Below are positions 17,360-26,747 of a stretch of DNA of 64,000 bases, one piece after another. The notes beneath the pieces are model-generated. The model did not search any database. It had not been told where the DNA came from and worked only from the letters and a program-made list of their open reading frames with translations. Positions within the stretch are counted from its first letter, which is position 1. Every line of letters starts with the position of its first letter. The stretch is from a virus. Lineage: Duplodnaviria > Heunggongvirae > Uroviricota > Caudoviricetes. The DNA lies in IMG/VR virus record IMGVR_UViG_2913177423_000001, positions 19,415-83,414 of that record; one strand, given 5' to 3'. The translations under genes were made by a program, and so were the position numbers.

Positions 17360-17749
17360 TCATAACACAGGGCAATCGTCAAATTCCCCACTCCGGGCAT
17401 CATTGATGATGTGGGTGATCACGCCAAACACAGCATTGCTGCCTGTATATCCATCGTCATCCTTCGGCAACGCTTCCTTCTTGCCGGATCTTAAATCCTC
17501 CAGGTGCTGATGCGGATGCTTCCGGTATCTCTTTACGCGATATTCCCCCTCTATAGCACATACAAGCAGCGAACCATCAACTGGAGTGAGTGAGGAATCG
17601 ACCACAAGCAACGCTCCTTGCAATATGCCTTCGCGGTAATGGCTGTCAGCCGCCCGCATGAAGTAGGTGGCTGATGGATGCCTGATTAGGTGCTGATCAA
17701 GAGATATGCGGCGTTCAGCGTAATCCGCCGCAGGAGAAGGGAAGCCCAT
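17360..17749 (-). CDS. humD: UmuD-prime homolog (HumD-like, S24 LexA/UmuD family)
   Basis: 129 aa; UmuD-like core GSLLVCAIEGEYRVKRY ... AVFGVITHII; LexA box directly upstream. Confidence 0.8.
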   Translation of the reverse strand: MGFPSPAADYAERRISLDQHLIRHPSATYFMRAADSHYREGILQGALLVVDSSLTPVDGSLLVCAIEGEYRVKRYRKHPHQHLEDLRSGKKEALPKDDDGYTGSNAVFGVITHIINDARSGEFDDCPVL

Positions 17750-17767
17750 AGCGTTTTCACCTCTAAA

Positions 17768-17787
17768 TACTGTTTATATATACAGTA
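17768..17787. promoter_or_regulatory. LexA (SOS) box TACTGTTTATATATACAGTA
   Basis: CTGT-N8-ACAG palindrome about 19 nt upstream of humD start. Confidence 0.7.
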
Positions 17788-18952: not shown

Positions 18953-19705
18953 TTAATCAGCCTCCAGTGGCAATAACGCCTTAGCCATTTCATGAATCAG
19001 CATGGCATCAATGACGCCTAGCGTATGGCCCGGCTTAATCTTTAATGCGGCCTCAAGATAGCCTCTTTCCAGAGTGGTTTTTACGCTTTTCCTGGGCGCT
19101 TGTTGGGGACTATCCGGAAGATCCGGATGGTTGCCAGCCTCATAAGCTACCCGCAACCAGTGCATGAATGTTTCCGCAGACACACAACCACAGTCCACAT
19201 CGATTTTCCCGCGTTGCTGTTCCAGCCATTGCTCAAAATCTAACTTGCAAGCCTTACTTTCAAGTTCATCACCATTGAACTCGACTTTCTGCGACGCTAT
19301 GAGAGCGGCTTCGTACTGTTCGCGAGAGACAACTGACTGGTATTCATCGCTATCAAGGTCACGAATTGGAAGCTCAATCTCACGACAAAAATTCCGCCCA
19401 TAGAACTGGTCTTTTTTGTGGTCTGAGCCAAAAGCAAAAGTCGCGCATGGCGCCATTAAATTGACACTGAGTATGTGACAATAACTCATGCCATCAGGCC
19501 ATCCGCCGCACTTAGGCAACTCCTTCACTAATAAGTCGATCAGCTTCATTGTTTTACCATCTTTGCAAGTCGCCAAAGCCATTTGAGCAAGCGCCAATAC
19601 TTCATCTGCCGTATATCCAGCACCGTGACCATACATTTCTATTCGGGAAATAATCTCTGATATACGCTCTTTATTGATTCTGATCATAGTTCTATTTCCT
19701 TGCAT
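18953..19705 (-). CDS. hypothetical protein (about 245 aa)
   Basis: long minus-strand ORF; start may be internal ATG at 19687. Confidence 0.55.
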   Translation of the reverse strand: MQGNRTMIRINKERISEIISRIEMYGHGAGYTADEVLALAQMALATCKDGKTMKLIDLLVKELPKCGGWPDGMSYCHILSVNLMAPCATFAFGSDHKKDQFYGRNFCREIELPIRDLDSDEYQSVVSREQYEAALIASQKVEFNGDELESKACKLDFEQWLEQQRGKIDVDCGCVSAETFMHWLRVAYEAGNHPDLPDSPQQAPRKSVKTTLERGYLEAALKIKPGHTLGVIDAMLIHEMAKALLPLEAD

Positions 19706-22688: not shown

Positions 22689-23243
22689 TCACTCTCCTTT
22701 GATGCGAATGCCAGCGGCGCGGATAGATTTCCATTGTTCCCACATTCGGTTGAAGTCTGTGCCTGATAAGGTTGCGTTACGGTATCCAGTTTCGGTACGC
22801 AATCCTTCAAGCGTCGATTTGGAGATACAAATTGAATGCATTACCCATGATTCAAACAAATCACGCTCCCGAGCTTCGCAACTTTGCTTACTCATATATT
22901 CGATACGATCAGCCATCGCAGCGCACTCTTCAAAGTTGCTAAATGCCTTTCGCTCCCATTCAGCGCATTGTTTTCTAAGCTCTGCAATCAGCTTGTCTTT
23001 GCCTTCCAGCTCAACGCGCAGCTTCCCTACCGTTAGCGCAATATCCTCATTCTCCTGATCGCGGTGTTTGATGTATTGCTGGTTTCTTTCCCGTTCATCC
23101 AGAAGCGCTAGCACAATGTGTGGCGTTATCAAGGACTCAAATTCGGTAACAGCTTGCTCACCTCGCTTGTAATTCTTAATCCCACCTAAATTTTTCGCGT
23201 TCTGTGCCGCCTCACGCAGTGCCTGGTAATTAATTTCGCTCAC
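22689..23243 (-). CDS. Ead/Ea22-like coiled-coil protein
   Basis: coiled-coil core KLRVELEGKDKLIAELRKQ shared with paralogs upstream. Confidence 0.5.
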   Translation of the reverse strand: MSEINYQALREAAQNAKNLGGIKNYKRGEQAVTEFESLITPHIVLALLDERERNQQYIKHRDQENEDIALTVGKLRVELEGKDKLIAELRKQCAEWERKAFSNFEECAAMADRIEYMSKQSCEARERDLFESWVMHSICISKSTLEGLRTETGYRNATLSGTDFNRMWEQWKSIRAAGIRIKGE

Positions 23244-23947
23244 TGGCTGCCTCCTTTGCGAAGCTCTGCGGCAAAGTCAGTGGCATGTTCACCGAGTAGT
23301 TTCCAGTTATCGCGTATATCAGATGCAAGCGACTGTTCGGATTTTGAGTTACATTTCTGTGCAAACATCTCCACCCCCTGCGCCCGCACTTCAGCCAGGA
23401 AAGCGCCAGTAGCAGGAGTGTCAATGCAAACACTGTCACGAAGGATGAAGAACGCATTAAGCATTCCTCTTTCTGGTACATCGTCCTGGCATTCCTCATA
23501 TGCAGCCAATGCATCCATCATTTTCTGACCGAATTGCGGAGGTTGTGCAGATTTCAGTGCTATATTCTCCGCCGCCAGCGTCGCGCGATTGCTCTCCAGT
23601 TCTGCAATGCGCTGTTTTGCGGCATCAAGTTCAATCGACAATTTTTCCAACTGCTCTTTATGCTTTTTGTATGCCTGATATGCGTGCCAGGACTGTCCTT
23701 TGCGCACACTTTCAGTAATATCAGAAATCTGTTCTGGTGTTAGCGTGGTCAGTGGCTGCGCCGGGAAAATCAGCACTTTCCCGGCATCCCAATCAAAACC
23801 CGCCTGAATTGACTGAACCTCAACTGATGGTGTTGAACCAATGCTACCTGGTGAATGGATAACAATCGCCATGTCCATATCACGATGCTGGCAGTGTTTG
23901 TTGGACAAGATACGATTCACCAACTCAGAAAATTTGGAAAATTTCAT
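23240..23947 (-). CDS. Ead/Ea22-like protein, paralog A
   Basis: [14 protein letters not shown] and [14 protein letters not shown] match paralog 24267-24968; start at ATG overlapping upstream stop. Confidence 0.55.
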
Positions 23948-24270
23948 GCTGATTCCCTTTGCTCTTCTTGGATAATGTTGTTGCAATCTTTCACGCACTC
24001 GTCACAGATGAAAACGTTGTCCCCGGCAATTAACTTTTTGACGGTGTGCTGGGATTTATTGCAGAAGCTGCAATAAAGCGTTGGACTGGCTGATACGGAT
24101 GGTGCTCCGGATGTCAGCCGCGCGATGTCGTCCTTGCGGCGCAACATCACACGGCAGCACTCAGCAAGTTTCTCCGGGGAGATTCCTTCCTCCGTGGCGA
24201 GTGCCTCCAGTCGTTCAAGCACGTGGAAGGCTTTTTCCTGGGTAAATGCAGAATGTGATATGGCCATCAT
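23944..24270 (-). CDS. small protein with C-terminal ClpX-type zinc-binding domain (C4 zinc ribbon)
   Basis: [39 protein letters not shown] closely matches ClpX N-terminal ZBD. Confidence 0.65.
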
Positions 24271-24968
24271 CTCTCCCCTTCAAAGTTCGGGCGCAGGCAG
24301 GATTGTCCTTTACGAAGCAGGGCTGCGAACCTGTCAGCCGCATCCGCGCAAGCAGAAGCAACGGAATCAAAAAATGGATCATCTCCGGTATCGCGCATCG
24401 TCAAAGCGAATGCCTCCAATCCCTGAGCCTGTATTTCTACAAGATAAGCCTCAGATATAGTGCTTTTCGCTTCACCTAACTCGTTATGAGCTATGTTCGC
24501 TACACATGCGATGTCTATATCTGGATGATTAATTGGGAGATGGCTAAGAATTGCCTCAAGTGCTGCTTTTTTGTTTTGGCATTCCGCCACCAGCGCCCCG
24601 CTATTGCTTTCCAGCTCTGCAATACACTTTTTAGCGGCCTCCAGCTCAACACGCAGCTTCTCAAGCGTTAGGGCCATCTCCACTTTCTCGTCCAGCAGTT
24701 CAATCACATCAGGATCGCTACCATCAACTACTGATATGCGCGAATTTTTGTAATGCTCGTCAGCATAAGTTCGTCCAGTTTTGAAGCGTCCGTCAGCCTC
24801 CATGCCGGAACAGGCATAAACAACATGTGATCCAGATATGCGTTCCATTGACATTTCCTCGCCACAAACAGAGCATTTAGGCGCTGGTTTCGGTGAATAA
24901 CGTTCACGTAACGGATAGTAAAGCTCGATCTCCGCCAGTTGCTCTGGCGTTAAACCTTCAGACTTCAT
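24267..24968 (-). CDS. Ead/Ea22-like protein, paralog B (N-terminal Cys4 zinc ribbon)
   Basis: CSVCGEEMS...YACSG motif plus [14 protein letters not shown] coiled coil. Confidence 0.55.
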
Positions 24969-25275
24969 GCACTCTCCTTTCGAAATAAACGTACTGATTA
25001 ATCATGCCCAGGGGCATTTCGAGTTTTTCCGCGATCTCACGGCGGGGAACGCCACACTGATGAAGCTGCCGCGCCAGCTCTATATCGCTCTGCCGATATT
25101 TGGCTGACTGGTGAAAGTCACCTTTCAGAATCATTCTGATCCCCAGTTCCCGCGCTTTAGTCCTGACAGCATCTCCGGTACGCCCGATCAGCCTCCCGAT
25201 ACTCTCGACTGTCATAGTTCCGGCGCACTGGCGGAGTATCATGATTTCTGCCCTTCTCCATCCCCGCCATCTCAC
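24958..25275 (-). CDS. putative HTH DNA-binding protein
   Basis: two HTH-like segments (TMTVESIGRLIGRTGDAVRTKARELG; GVPRREIAEKLEMP). Confidence 0.5.
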   Translation of the reverse strand: MRWRGWRRAEIMILRQCAGTMTVESIGRLIGRTGDAVRTKARELGIRMILKGDFHQSAKYRQSDIELARQLHQCGVPRREIAEKLEMPLGMINQYVYFERRVHEV

Positions 25276-25895
25276 GCTGACATCCTCTGAGACATAAACT
25301 CCACAAAACGAACTGCATCTTCAGAAACAACGCCGCATGACTTCAGATAATTCATTGCGTCATTAGGTAGCGGATTAGTTGGTTCGGCATTTGCCAGGGG
25401 TTGAGATAAACGCGTGATTAATTTGACCATTCTCCGCTGCCGGAGGTTGTATCCTTCAGCTAAAGACAGGTAACTGGAAAGGGTATTGCTTAAGCGGGCG
25501 CGAAGCTGATCCGTGCCGTGACATTCAATAGCAACATCACGTAACGCATCGACCAGTTCACGGTAAATATGCGCAGCCATTCTGCAATCTGAGTCAGACG
25601 GCGCTTCATAAATTACCGTCAGCTCCAGTTTTTCAGCCAGGGCGTGTTCTGCTCGTGCTCCTGCGGACGCTTCCCAGCCATTAAGCAGATAGATAGCATC
25701 AGCAGAACGCACCATTGCCAGGCAAATATCCATGTATTCGCTCTGACAAAGGCCACCAGGTAATACCGCCGGATTAAGAACGATATGCCCTTCAGCCATC
25801 AGCTCGCTCGCTTTCGCATTAAACGCCGCGCGGTTGTAATCTGGATAACCAGTCATCGGACCCGCGATGTAAATTTTCAAAACACGTTTCACCAT
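25272..25895 (-). CDS. DUF4406-like protein (nucleoside 2-deoxyribosyltransferase-like fold) with C-terminal extension
   Basis: N-terminus KIYIAGPMTGYPDYNRAAF ... YLLNGWEASAGARAEHALAEKLELTV; start moved to ATG 25895 overlapping leader ORF stop. Confidence 0.55.
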   Translation of the reverse strand: MVKRVLKIYIAGPMTGYPDYNRAAFNAKASELMAEGHIVLNPAVLPGGLCQSEYMDICLAMVRSADAIYLLNGWEASAGARAEHALAEKLELTVIYEAPSDSDCRMAAHIYRELVDALRDVAIECHGTDQLRARLSNTLSSYLSLAEGYNLRQRRMVKLITRLSQPLANAEPTNPLPNDAMNYLKSCGVVSEDAVRFVEFMSQRMSA

Positions 25896-26050
25896 CAAAA
25901 TTTCCCCAGCATCGTGACGCAAAACATAAGCACTGCAAAAAGCTCAATACCAAGCTCAAGTAGCGCCAACGCGCCGAAAAACAGCACATAAAACAGGCCG
26001 ATCTCATTCACAGGTGGCTGGTGGATCGCACTTAAGGCTATAAGCATCAT
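25895..26050 (-). CDS. hypothetical small hydrophobic leader protein (51 aa)
   Basis: GGAGGA RBS then ATGATG; two TM-like segments; stop overlaps downstream start; not in ORF track (below cutoff). Confidence 0.3.
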   Translation of the reverse strand: MMLIALSAIHQPPVNEIGLFYVLFFGALALLELGIELFAVLMFCVTMLGKF

Positions 26051-26086
26051 GTCCTCCAAACAGTAAACAGCGACTGATATTAATGT

Positions 26087-26123
26087 TTTGTGTTAGAAAA
26101 TCAATTTTGAATATCTAACAAAT
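26087..26123. promoter_or_regulatory. inverted pair of operator-like motifs between divergent operons
   Basis: TTTGTGTTAGAAAATCAATTTT and inverted GAATATCTAACAAAT. Confidence 0.55.
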
Positions 26124-26168
26124 ATGATCAATCATAAAAAAATCGCTGATAAGTAAGAGGCAGCCAAC

Positions 26169-26747
26169 ATGCAGAGACAGAGTTATTGGGAGAAACAGAG
26201 ACAAAAAGCCATGCAAAAACTGGCTGATCCGGAATGGCGGGAAGAGCAAAGGGCAAAACGTCTTCAGCAGGCTCAACGCCAGCAGCAACGCGCAAGGGAA
26301 AAAGCCGCATCGCCTGAATATCGTCAAAAGAAACTTGAAAAAGTGAGGCAAAGTGAACAGCGCAGAAGAGAGAGGGCGGCGTCAGCCCTCCCCAAAAAAA
26401 CGCGCCCGTCACGCGGATTAAAAGGGAGATCACTCACAGCAGAAGAGCGCCGGATACAGGAGGCTATAGGCAAACTCCCCTGTATTGCCTGCCATCTTCA
26501 CGGGAAGCATAGCCCTGTCGTATCTCTCCACCACATATTTGGCAGAACGGCTAAAGATGCCCATAAATACGTTCTCCCTTTGTGTAAATGGCACCACCAG
26601 CACGCAGCGCCAGCAGAGATCCGCGAACAATATCCCTGGTTGGTTCCTGTTCATGCTGATGGAAAAATAGGCGGGAAAGCAGATTTTATACGGCACAATG
26701 CCGAAGAGATGACGCTCTATCAGACGGTGCAAGAAATGGTGAATTAA
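26169..26747 (+). CDS. ref: Ref-like HNH endonuclease (recombination enhancement function)
   Basis: basic/Gln-rich N-terminal half; C-terminal HNH-like CIACHLHGKHSPVVSLHHI ... LPLCKWHHQ; operator upstream as for P1 ref. Confidence 0.7.
   Translation: MQRQSYWEKQRQKAMQKLADPEWREEQRAKRLQQAQRQQQRAREKAASPEYRQKKLEKVRQSEQRRRERAASALPKKTRPSRGLKGRSLTAEERRIQEAIGKLPCIACHLHGKHSPVVSLHHIFGRTAKDAHKYVLPLCKWHHQHAAPAEIREQYPWLVPVHADGKIGGKADFIRHNAEEMTLYQTVQEMVN

Follow-up and report, generated by a model that had tools for sequence, protein, structure and literature searches.

A conserved helical hairpin joined to a free ClpX-type zinc-binding domain in temperate phages: a candidate decoy of the ClpX N-domain

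Introduction

What use could a phage have for the substrate-docking domain of ClpX when the unfoldase itself is left behind? The question is raised by a small gene in a 64,000-nucleotide stretch of DNA (the window) that comprises positions 19,415 to 83,414 of the IMG/VR virus record IMGVR_UViG_2913177423_000001 (Caudoviricetes). The complete gene lies on the minus strand at 23944..24270, with its stop codon at 23944-23946. The open reading frame (ORF) spans this interval exactly and encodes a 12 kDa protein of 108 residues, in which an N-terminal helical hairpin and a flexible linker precede a ClpX-type zinc-binding domain (ZBD). We refer to it here as the ZBD protein.

ClpXP sets the stability of RpoS, UmuD′, FtsZ, antitoxins such as MqsA, lambda O, MuA and P1 Phd. 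Against FtsH and Lon, phages carry inhibitors encoded in their early or accessory regions, namely lambda CIII for FtsH and T4 PinA and T7 Gp4.5 for Lon; to our knowledge, no ClpXP-directed phage factor comparable to these inhibitors is known in enterobacteria. A literature search, outside which most subscription journals fell, returned no study of a phage-borne free ZBD or of a phage inhibitor of this type directed against ClpXP. In ClpX itself, the N-domain forms a dimer with bound zinc, on which SspB, RssB and UmuD dock as well as the substrates lambda O, MuA, UmuD′, FtsZ and MqsA; recognition of the ssrA tag does not require it (PMC5415555, PMC7804408, PMC8808172).

The ZBD annotation itself is not new, being present in RefSeq and UniProt. 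What appears to be new is the obligate union of hairpin and ZBD, the selection acting on it, its mobility across phage backbones that include a P2 hotspot, the systematic replacement of residues invariant in ClpX, and the recurrence of free ZBDs in phages. The gene is real and under selection. As to function, we tentatively favor the reading that temperate phages would use the ZBD protein as a client-specific competitive decoy of the ClpX N-domain; the pattern of retained residues makes this plausible, though we stop short of calling it probable.

The C-terminal domain is a ClpX-type zinc-binding domain

The ZBD occupies residues 65-108 (23947..24078, minus strand), as delimited by Pfam, a PDB search, alignment and fold match. 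The Pfam model PF06689 (zf-C4_ClpX) matched residues 66-102 (64.8 bits, E=6.6e-18; gathering cutoff 27), covered model positions 2-39 of 39, and was the sole significant Pfam domain in the protein. A sequence search of the PDB returned ClpX N-domains only, with the E. coli entries 1OVX and 2DS5 at 2.4e-16 and 9e-16, a resemblance far beyond chance. The first-pass annotation, made from the sequence without database searches, had proposed a small phage protein with such a domain, and these matches bear it out for a phage-plasmid protein. The ORF indeed ends in the sequence which that annotation had likened to the ClpX ZBD; 29 of 40 core residues are identical to E. coli ClpX (72%), as are 31/45 overall. 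The conservation of the four Cys ligands, on which the claim hinged, held up on proper alignment. With the same CxxC-x18-CxxC spacing, C67, C70, C89 and C92 (codons 24070-24072, 24061-24063, 24004-24006 and 23995-23997, minus strand) align with C14, C17, C36 and C39 of ClpX (mature numbering), and all four are invariant both in a 23-sequence alignment and in all 33 unique ZBDs of the family.

An AlphaFold model of the ZBD protein, computed with a 21-sequence family alignment as input, reached a predicted local distance difference test (pLDDT) score of 82 and places helices at residues 11-28 and 32-53; after a linker of low confidence (54-64), residues 65-107 form a beta-hairpin and a helix. 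Within this last segment, strands E80-82 and E87-89 and helix H90-107 describe a treble-clef fold. Using Foldseek, the modeled ZBD superposed on the ClpX ZBD crystal structures 2DS5, 2DS6, 2DS7 and 2DS8 with root mean square deviations of 0.7-0.8 Å (0.8 Å over 38 residues at 74% identity for 2DS5 and 2DS6), a likeness that may stem in part from training of AlphaFold on these structures. The E. coli ClpX ZBD (1OVX, 2DS5-2DS8; PF06689) thus shares with the phage domain the C4 treble clef, the ligand spacing and the contact residues described below. By its profile score, ligands and predicted fold, the ZBD protein belongs to the ClpX-type ZBD family.

It is not a ClpX. No AAA+ module or Walker A motif was found in the ZBD protein, in line with the first reading of the sequence; the chain stops 16 residues past the last Cys. 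The NCBIfam ClpX equivalogs NF003745 and TIGR00382 reached 48.1 and 44 bits where their cutoffs lie at 359 and 370.75, with the match confined to model positions 5-50. The order of parts is also reversed: the ClpX ZBD is N-terminal and precedes an AAA+ unfoldase, whereas the phage ZBD is C-terminal and sits behind the hairpin.

Database names for the family are mixed. An identical protein (P0001) is listed as ‘ClpX C4-type zinc finger protein [Escherichia sp. E14S1]’, and RefSeq gives its relatives one of two names, ‘ClpX C4-type zinc finger protein’ and the erroneous ‘carboxylate--amine ligase’. The latter misnaming is widespread (P0002, P0004, P0006, D6 orf93) and attaches to hairpin-plus-ZBD proteins of ~107 residues without a ligase domain. 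RefSeq homologs take the second ATG as the start, giving 107 residues. Over its full length, the protein matches the profile of PHROG 6797, a family of unknown function (E=2.1e-53; residues 2-107 on positions 1-106/107).

Hairpin and ZBD form a two-domain protein under selection

The N-terminal region with the helical hairpin (residues 1-53; 24112..24270, minus strand) was modeled as a block with pLDDT 84-93; the second of its two helices carries the signature V(M/I)LRRK(D/N)D. It is followed by a flexible linker (residues 54-64; 24079..24111, minus strand), over which pLDDT falls to ~63. The hairpin has no match among PDB folds or in Pfam. To look for it elsewhere, residues 1-62 alone were searched with a word index and full HMMER against 1.84 billion representatives, and matches were found only upstream of ZBDs or in truncated fragments. 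A domain common to other proteins could hence be ruled out, as the hairpin was seen solely with ZBDs or in such fragments and matched no fold. A deeper branch (P0052, P0055) retains ~47% hairpin identity and again ends in a ZBD, in this case a more ClpX-like one in which G18, E23, P31 and L42 are kept. Judged from these sequences, the hairpin and ZBD form an old, obligate two-domain architecture.

Around this architecture, recombination has produced derivatives. The N-termini of the upstream Ea22-like gene are grafted onto the ZBD protein in P0002, P0012 and P0020, and in the chimera P0031 an Ea22-type coiled coil is joined to the ZBD at the linker.

Pooled Nei-Gojobori estimates over 27 unique coding sequences, a crude pairwise approach, gave ratios of nonsynonymous to synonymous substitution (dN/dS) of 0.29 for the hairpin and 0.61 for the ZBD, with the linker between them at 0.90. 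Both domains are under purifying selection. The hairpin, which the first-pass annotation had overlooked, is the more constrained half, and this favors a specific partner over generic titration. The family ZBD shares 60% nucleotide identity with E. coli clpX, with synonymous sites saturated (pS 0.89), and ~70% identity at the protein level; saturation together with this level of protein identity implies that the ZBD sequence has been maintained by selection. A recent capture from E. coli clpX was ruled out by the same nucleotide identity and pS.

Translation signals are also in place. The ATG is preceded by a strong Shine-Dalgarno sequence, GAAGGGGAGAG; read directly from the minus strand at 24271..24279, the element (AGGGGAGAG) adjoins the ATG upstream. 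The gene start overlaps the stop of the upstream gene and its own stop overlaps the start of the downstream gene, each by 4 bp (ATGA), an arrangement typical of translational coupling.

Distribution and mobility of the family

Clustering at 90% identity yielded ~30 clusters that form the family, all from Escherichia or Salmonella. With megablast, homologs turned up in 125 of 5426 complete E. coli genomes, where they occupy 78 sites on chromosomes and 51 on plasmids. On viral contigs, 34 loci carry the family, the gene being intact in 34/36 and frameshifted in 2/36. In the latter two (IMG/VR contigs; L117, 6001-6849; L118, 5971-6828), the frameshift lies in the ZBD helix just past the fourth Cys and the frame runs into the downstream gene, creating fusion ORFs of 282-293 residues; these are probably decaying copies.

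At least three classes of context were distinguished. The first consists of D6-like phage-plasmids, to which the window belongs. Phage D6 is the type phage of this plasmid-prophage group, and its orf93 (YP_009914770; L002 3986-4306) is a direct homolog of 106 residues with the same architecture and operon position; it differs in the C-terminal tail and in carrying Ala at L42, where the window protein has Asp. The second class comprises integrated prophages by mrp/apbC, with genes for a 561-residue methyltransferase-like protein, an HD-domain protein and a UmuD′-like protein. In the third, P2-like prophages, the gene is placed between replication gene A, with ParM/StbB-like genes after it, and portal gene Q. 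This gpA-gpQ slot is the old/tin site of P2, a documented hotspot of anti-phage cargo (PMC9122126); the papers on P2 hotspots make no mention of ClpX, zinc or Ea22. One such locus (L004 6439-9443) reads ParM/StbA-like ATPase, StbB-like protein, 66-residue signal-peptide protein, ZBD protein, unrelated 169-residue protein and Ea22-like protein. A plasmid-type partition pair within a P2-like prophage is unusual. A PADLOC scan that covered the 66-residue, 169-residue and Ea22-like proteins of this cassette gave no match.

Immediate neighbors differ by context, with Ea22-like genes usually nearby. No partner gene is conserved across contexts: the neighbors in P2-like prophages and those in the window share only a 46-residue Ea22 N-terminal match, and a conserved partner gene was rejected as the P2-like flanks are unrelated to those of the window. 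Since neighbors change, the ZBD gene travels as a single-gene cassette, and its occurrence by itself across three unrelated prophage backbones points to a host or universal target.

The free ZBD also occurs outside this family. Among other small viral proteins, at least 17 (60-184 residues; IMG/VR L139-L165) carry a free ClpX-type ZBD with unrelated extensions, arranged as coiled coil plus C-terminal ZBD in L148, L156, L160, L163 and L164 and as N-terminal ZBD plus tail in L139, L144 and L165. Further free-ZBD matches were PHROGs 12435 (‘protease’), 5259 and 20296, and a 65-residue ‘Clp protease’ of Pseudomonas phage PP9W2 (A0A9E7CCK4); full-length ClpX was encoded on ~25 other contigs. Like the window protein, these free ZBDs are small, lack the AAA+ module and bear a short helical or unstructured extension. 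Their extensions are not homologous to the hairpin, and most of them keep G18 and P31, which the hairpin-plus-ZBD family has lost.

A proposed decoy of the ClpX N-domain

Mutagenesis has mapped the ligand contacts of the ClpX N-domain. L12, L13 and H23 (Met1 numbering) are implicated in binding of the MqsA degron, the site of which overlaps that of the SspB tail (PMC8808172), and F16 and I46 (mature numbering) in a hydrophobic pocket common to TF, lambda O, SspB and RssB (PMC7804408). In the window protein, the contact residues are kept as L65 (L13), H75 (H23), F69 (F16) and I99 (I46). Across the 33 family ZBDs, F16 is present in 33/33, L13 in 30/33 and H23 in 20/33, and I46 is Ile or Val in 29/33. 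With no unfoldase attached, recognition of a targeting signal by this domain could only sequester the signal; retained contact residues without a motor are what lead us to favor a competitive decoy. Isolated ClpX ZBD, reportedly, does compete for lambda O and SspB.

In the proposed mechanism, the phage ZBD would form a zinc-bound dimer, as the isolated ClpX ZBD does. This dimer would recognize signals of the N-domain type, both the adaptor tails of SspB-XB, UmuD and RssB and the N-domain-dependent degrons of lambda O, MuA, UmuD′, FtsZ and MqsA, and the bound client would be shielded from ClpXP rather than delivered to it. Given that single ZBD-peptide contacts are weak and that no other part of the protein is as constrained as the hairpin, the hairpin would supply dimer stability, a second contact, or both, making the protein selective for one client and no general inhibitor of ClpXP. 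Candidate clients include the host UmuD tether (whose capture would protect HumD, the UmuD′ analog of the phage), RssB/RpoS, a replication initiator and an antitoxin.

The first of these candidates draws on a gene in the window. At 17360-17749 (minus strand) lies a gene for a HumD-like, pre-processed UmuD′ analog of 129 residues, 43% identical to UmuD residues 25-139, and a perfect LexA box, CTGTTTATATATACAG, lies just upstream of it at 17770-17785 (the two together spanning 17360-17785 on the minus strand). Eight class-2 prophage loci likewise have a UmuD′-like gene, 3-4 kb downstream of the ZBD gene, and the start of each UmuD′-like gene coincides exactly with the Cys24/Gly25 cleavage site of UmuD. 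P2-like prophages lack this association. According to Neher et al. (2003), as cited in PMC8808172, UmuD′ is degraded by ClpXP via host UmuD, which tethers the heterodimer to the ClpX N-domain. Our hypothesis is that a ZBD decoy capturing the UmuD tether would stabilize the phage mutagenesis protein.

Several observations weigh against a decoy, the first group of which concerns the recognition surface. Within the family, H23 is replaced by Tyr, Thr or Ala in 13/33 sequences. As a comparison set, we used cellular ClpX ZBDs from 77 proteobacterial genomes and E. coli; these were fetched by a pattern at positions 33-40 and ranked on similarity to the query, a procedure that favors similar sequences, and the positions at which the family diverges all lie outside the retrieval pattern. 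ClpX cores from this set have a mean pairwise identity of 92%, with 35/40 positions near-invariant, whereas the family ZBDs, though drawn from enterobacterial phages only, have a mean of 71% (minimum 42%). The family consensus agrees with ClpX at 28 of the 35 near-invariant positions. Residues that are near-invariant in ClpX are kept never (G18, E23, D45) or rarely (P31 in 3%, L42 in 13%), being replaced by N/K/F/E at G18, A/T/K at E23, D/E at P31, V/A/D at L42 and R/N/E/S at D45, with S20 becoming S/P and I46 becoming V/I. In the window protein itself the changes are G18N, E23T, P31D, L42D, D45N and R48Q, so that an Asp stands at L42, beside the I46 pocket. The ligands, F16 and the fold core (L12, Y13, V24, L27, I28, G30, V33, F34, I35, V40, C43, N44, I47) are retained. 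With ClpX-invariant residues replaced and evolution much faster than in ClpX, the phage ZBD cannot be regarded as a plain copy of the host domain; the surface used for ClpX-type interactions may have been remodeled for another partner. Specificity could be tuned by the changes at L42 and D45, near the pocket, and by those at G18, E23 and P31, which fall in the knuckle loop and turn; equally, these changes could mark a surface that now serves a partner outside ClpXP.

The second group concerns the mechanism and its context. The decoy mechanism rests on homology, and the structural likeness may in part reflect the training of AlphaFold noted above. ZBD-peptide affinities are weak, and titration would require high expression or help from the hairpin. 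The sequence offers few regulatory or targeting signals: the P1 C1 operator consensus gave 0 matches across the whole window at ≤3 mismatches, no sigma-70-like promoter was called upstream of the accessory operon that holds the gene, and no XB/UmuD-like tether motif ([LIVM]R[VIEL][VI][KRV]) was present at the termini of the ~105 ORFs of the window.

Known systems place the proposed decoy in relief. Like CIII, PinA and Gp4.5, the ZBD protein is a small product of an early or accessory region, and in its proposed role it would share with them the protection of a labile protein through interference with a host protease. No sequence or fold relation connects them, PF06689 being the only Pfam match of the ZBD protein, and the proposed mechanism would be mimicry of a recognition domain, whereas CIII, PinA and Gp4.5 work by substrate-like competition or by direct binding to the protease. 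SspB, RssB, the UmuD tether and IraD/IraP/IraM act at the same step, N-domain docking (PMC7804408, PMC8808172), and SspB also consists of two modules with a flexible tether. Adaptors, however, carry a ZBD-binding peptide, while the phage protein carries the ZBD itself, has no XB-like motif and is not homologous to them.

The wider proposition, that temperate phages detached the ClpX docking domain and fused it to a specificity hairpin to yield a mimic that intercepts ClpXP targeting signals, is more doubtful than the decoy reading as such, and we advance it as a conjecture. If true, lambda CIII, T4 PinA and T7 Gp4.5 would have in the ZBD protein their first phage counterpart directed at ClpXP, one that acts by mimicry of the recognition domain. 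Depending on the timing of expression, it could protect a phage protein such as the LexA-controlled HumD or, from the gpA-gpQ slot, exclude ClpX-dependent competitors such as Mu. The unrelated phage mini-proteins that pair some other segment with a ZBD would then form a widespread, unrecognized class of protease decoys, and mimicking the docking site in place of the substrate would be a simple and general viral strategy. Such a decoy would also be a genetic tool that switches off N-domain-dependent ClpXP degradation and leaves ssrA-tag degradation untouched. The system is tractable, as the cultured phage D6 carries the homolog orf93 and quantitative ClpXP assays exist.

Alternative explanations

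The main rival to the decoy is exaptation: the ZBD fold would serve as a generic zinc-ribbon module for dimerization or protein binding, with a partner unrelated to ClpXP such as an Ea22-like neighbor or a host factor. The systematic change of ClpX-invariant positions and the fast evolution of the domain fit this explanation, as does the general versatility of treble-clef fingers as binding modules. The ZBD gene is nearly always found among Ea22-like paralogs, and P0031 is a natural chimera in which an Ea22-type coiled coil sits directly on the same ZBD; the recurrence of a coiled coil with a C-terminal ZBD in unrelated viral proteins suggests a portable end-module. Against exaptation, the flanking genes are not conserved and are unrelated in P2-like prophages, and the hairpin lacks similarity to Ea22-like proteins: BLASTP against those of the neighborhood gave chance-level matches of 8-19 residues only, and PF13935 is not found on the ZBD protein. 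The retention of L13, F16, H23 and I46 in the window protein, the invariance of F16 in the family and the ~70% protein identity to ClpX held despite saturated synonymous divergence also speak against it. We consider exaptation unlikely, if still to be taken seriously; should the ZBD have been re-used for an unrelated role, the case would be one of ordinary domain shuffling in a phage accessory region.

Could the phage ZBD act on ClpX itself? The first-pass annotation had suggested heterodimerization with ClpX, besides titration of adaptors. The domain might enter a mixed ZBD dimer or dock on the ring, either as a dominant-negative cap against N-domain-dependent recognition or as an adaptor for a new substrate recruited by the hairpin. 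The ZBD is a dimerization domain (PMC5415555, PMC8808172), and phage and host have a fold core in common (L12, Y13, V24, L27, I28, V33, F34, I35, V40, C43, I47). A ZBD joined through a flexible linker to a second domain is, moreover, the layout of tethered adaptors such as SspB. ClpX ZBD dimers are reportedly very stable and held at high local concentration in the hexamer, which makes invasion by a homodimerizing free domain unlikely, and nothing indicates a cargo for the hairpin. Pairing with ClpX is, in our estimate, decidedly unlikely.

The Mu transpososome must be remodeled by ClpX, and a third alternative builds on this dependence: as a prophage exclusion factor expressed from the lysogen, the free ZBD would starve superinfecting phages reliant on the ClpX N-domain, such as Mu, a decoy mechanism of which the lysogen is the beneficiary. 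The gene does behave as a mobile single-gene cassette and occupies the gpA-gpQ slot, an anti-phage hotspot (PMC9122126), in P2-like prophages, and the N-domain of ClpX plays an important part in recognizing MuA (PMC5415555). Such hotspots carry non-defense cargo too, and elsewhere the gene lies in a long co-oriented, coupled block of early-region-type genes (Ea22-like, DUF4406) that is not a known defense island. PADLOC-DB v2 gave no match for the ZBD protein and, for its neighbors, only a 13-bit coiled-coil match to JetC. A known defense system was rejected for lack of a PADLOC match, and a role in exclusion is very unlikely.

That the gene is a functionless, decaying fragment of a captured clpX is effectively refuted: the two frameshifted copies among 36 loci (L117, L118) and the truncated fragments P0030, P0051 and P0054 are outweighed by invariant Cys ligands, an intact gene in 34/36 loci on three phage backbones, dN/dS below 1 in both domains and about 1 in the linker, synonymous divergence from clpX so saturated that the gene must be old and maintained, and a ZBD placed C-terminal behind a dedicated conserved domain, unlike a truncated clpX, such that truncated clpX or a pseudogene was ruled out by architecture, dN/dS and conservation.

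Genomic setting in the window

The window derives from a D6-like phage-plasmid, a relative of P1. For a 24-kb slice of it, E. coli plasmids of ~90 kb aligned over 70-75% of the slice with 89-92% identity; the corresponding figures for Escherichia phage D6 were 62% and 89%. The ZBD gene is part of a tightly packed accessory block on the minus strand (22689..26059), near icd/ant and divergent from ref (26169-26747, plus strand). In order, the block encodes a 54-residue hydrophobic peptide, a DUF4406 protein, a small helix-turn-helix-like protein, an Ea22-like protein, the ZBD protein, a coiled-coil protein and an Ea22-like protein, and continues onward. The gene upstream of the ZBD gene encodes an Ead/Ea22-like protein of 233 residues (24267..24968, minus strand; PF13935 at 38 bits), and its stop overlaps the ZBD start. 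Downstream, the start of a coiled-coil gene of 235 residues (23240..23947, minus strand) overlaps the ZBD stop, and its RefSeq homolog is called Ea22-like. Three Ea22-like or coiled-coil paralogs thus flank the ZBD gene within 22689-24968 (minus strand), and relatives show recombination among them and with the ZBD gene.

The very hydrophobic 54-residue peptide (25895-26059, minus strand) heads the operon, and its conservation extends to D6 (orf88) and 12 related loci (cluster 5). The interval 26079-26132, within the divergent intergenic region that separates the accessory operon from ref, contains a 26-nt imperfect palindrome (73% complementary, 2-nt spacer), which may be an operator. No LexA box was found upstream of the accessory operon, the sole one of interest being that at humD. 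The ClpXP-dependent addiction module of P1, phd/doc, was not found in the window. Three tRNA genes lie on the plus strand, tRNA-Arg(tct) at 4398-4474, tRNA-Thr(tgt) at 4479-4554 and tRNA-Met(cat) at 6027-6102.

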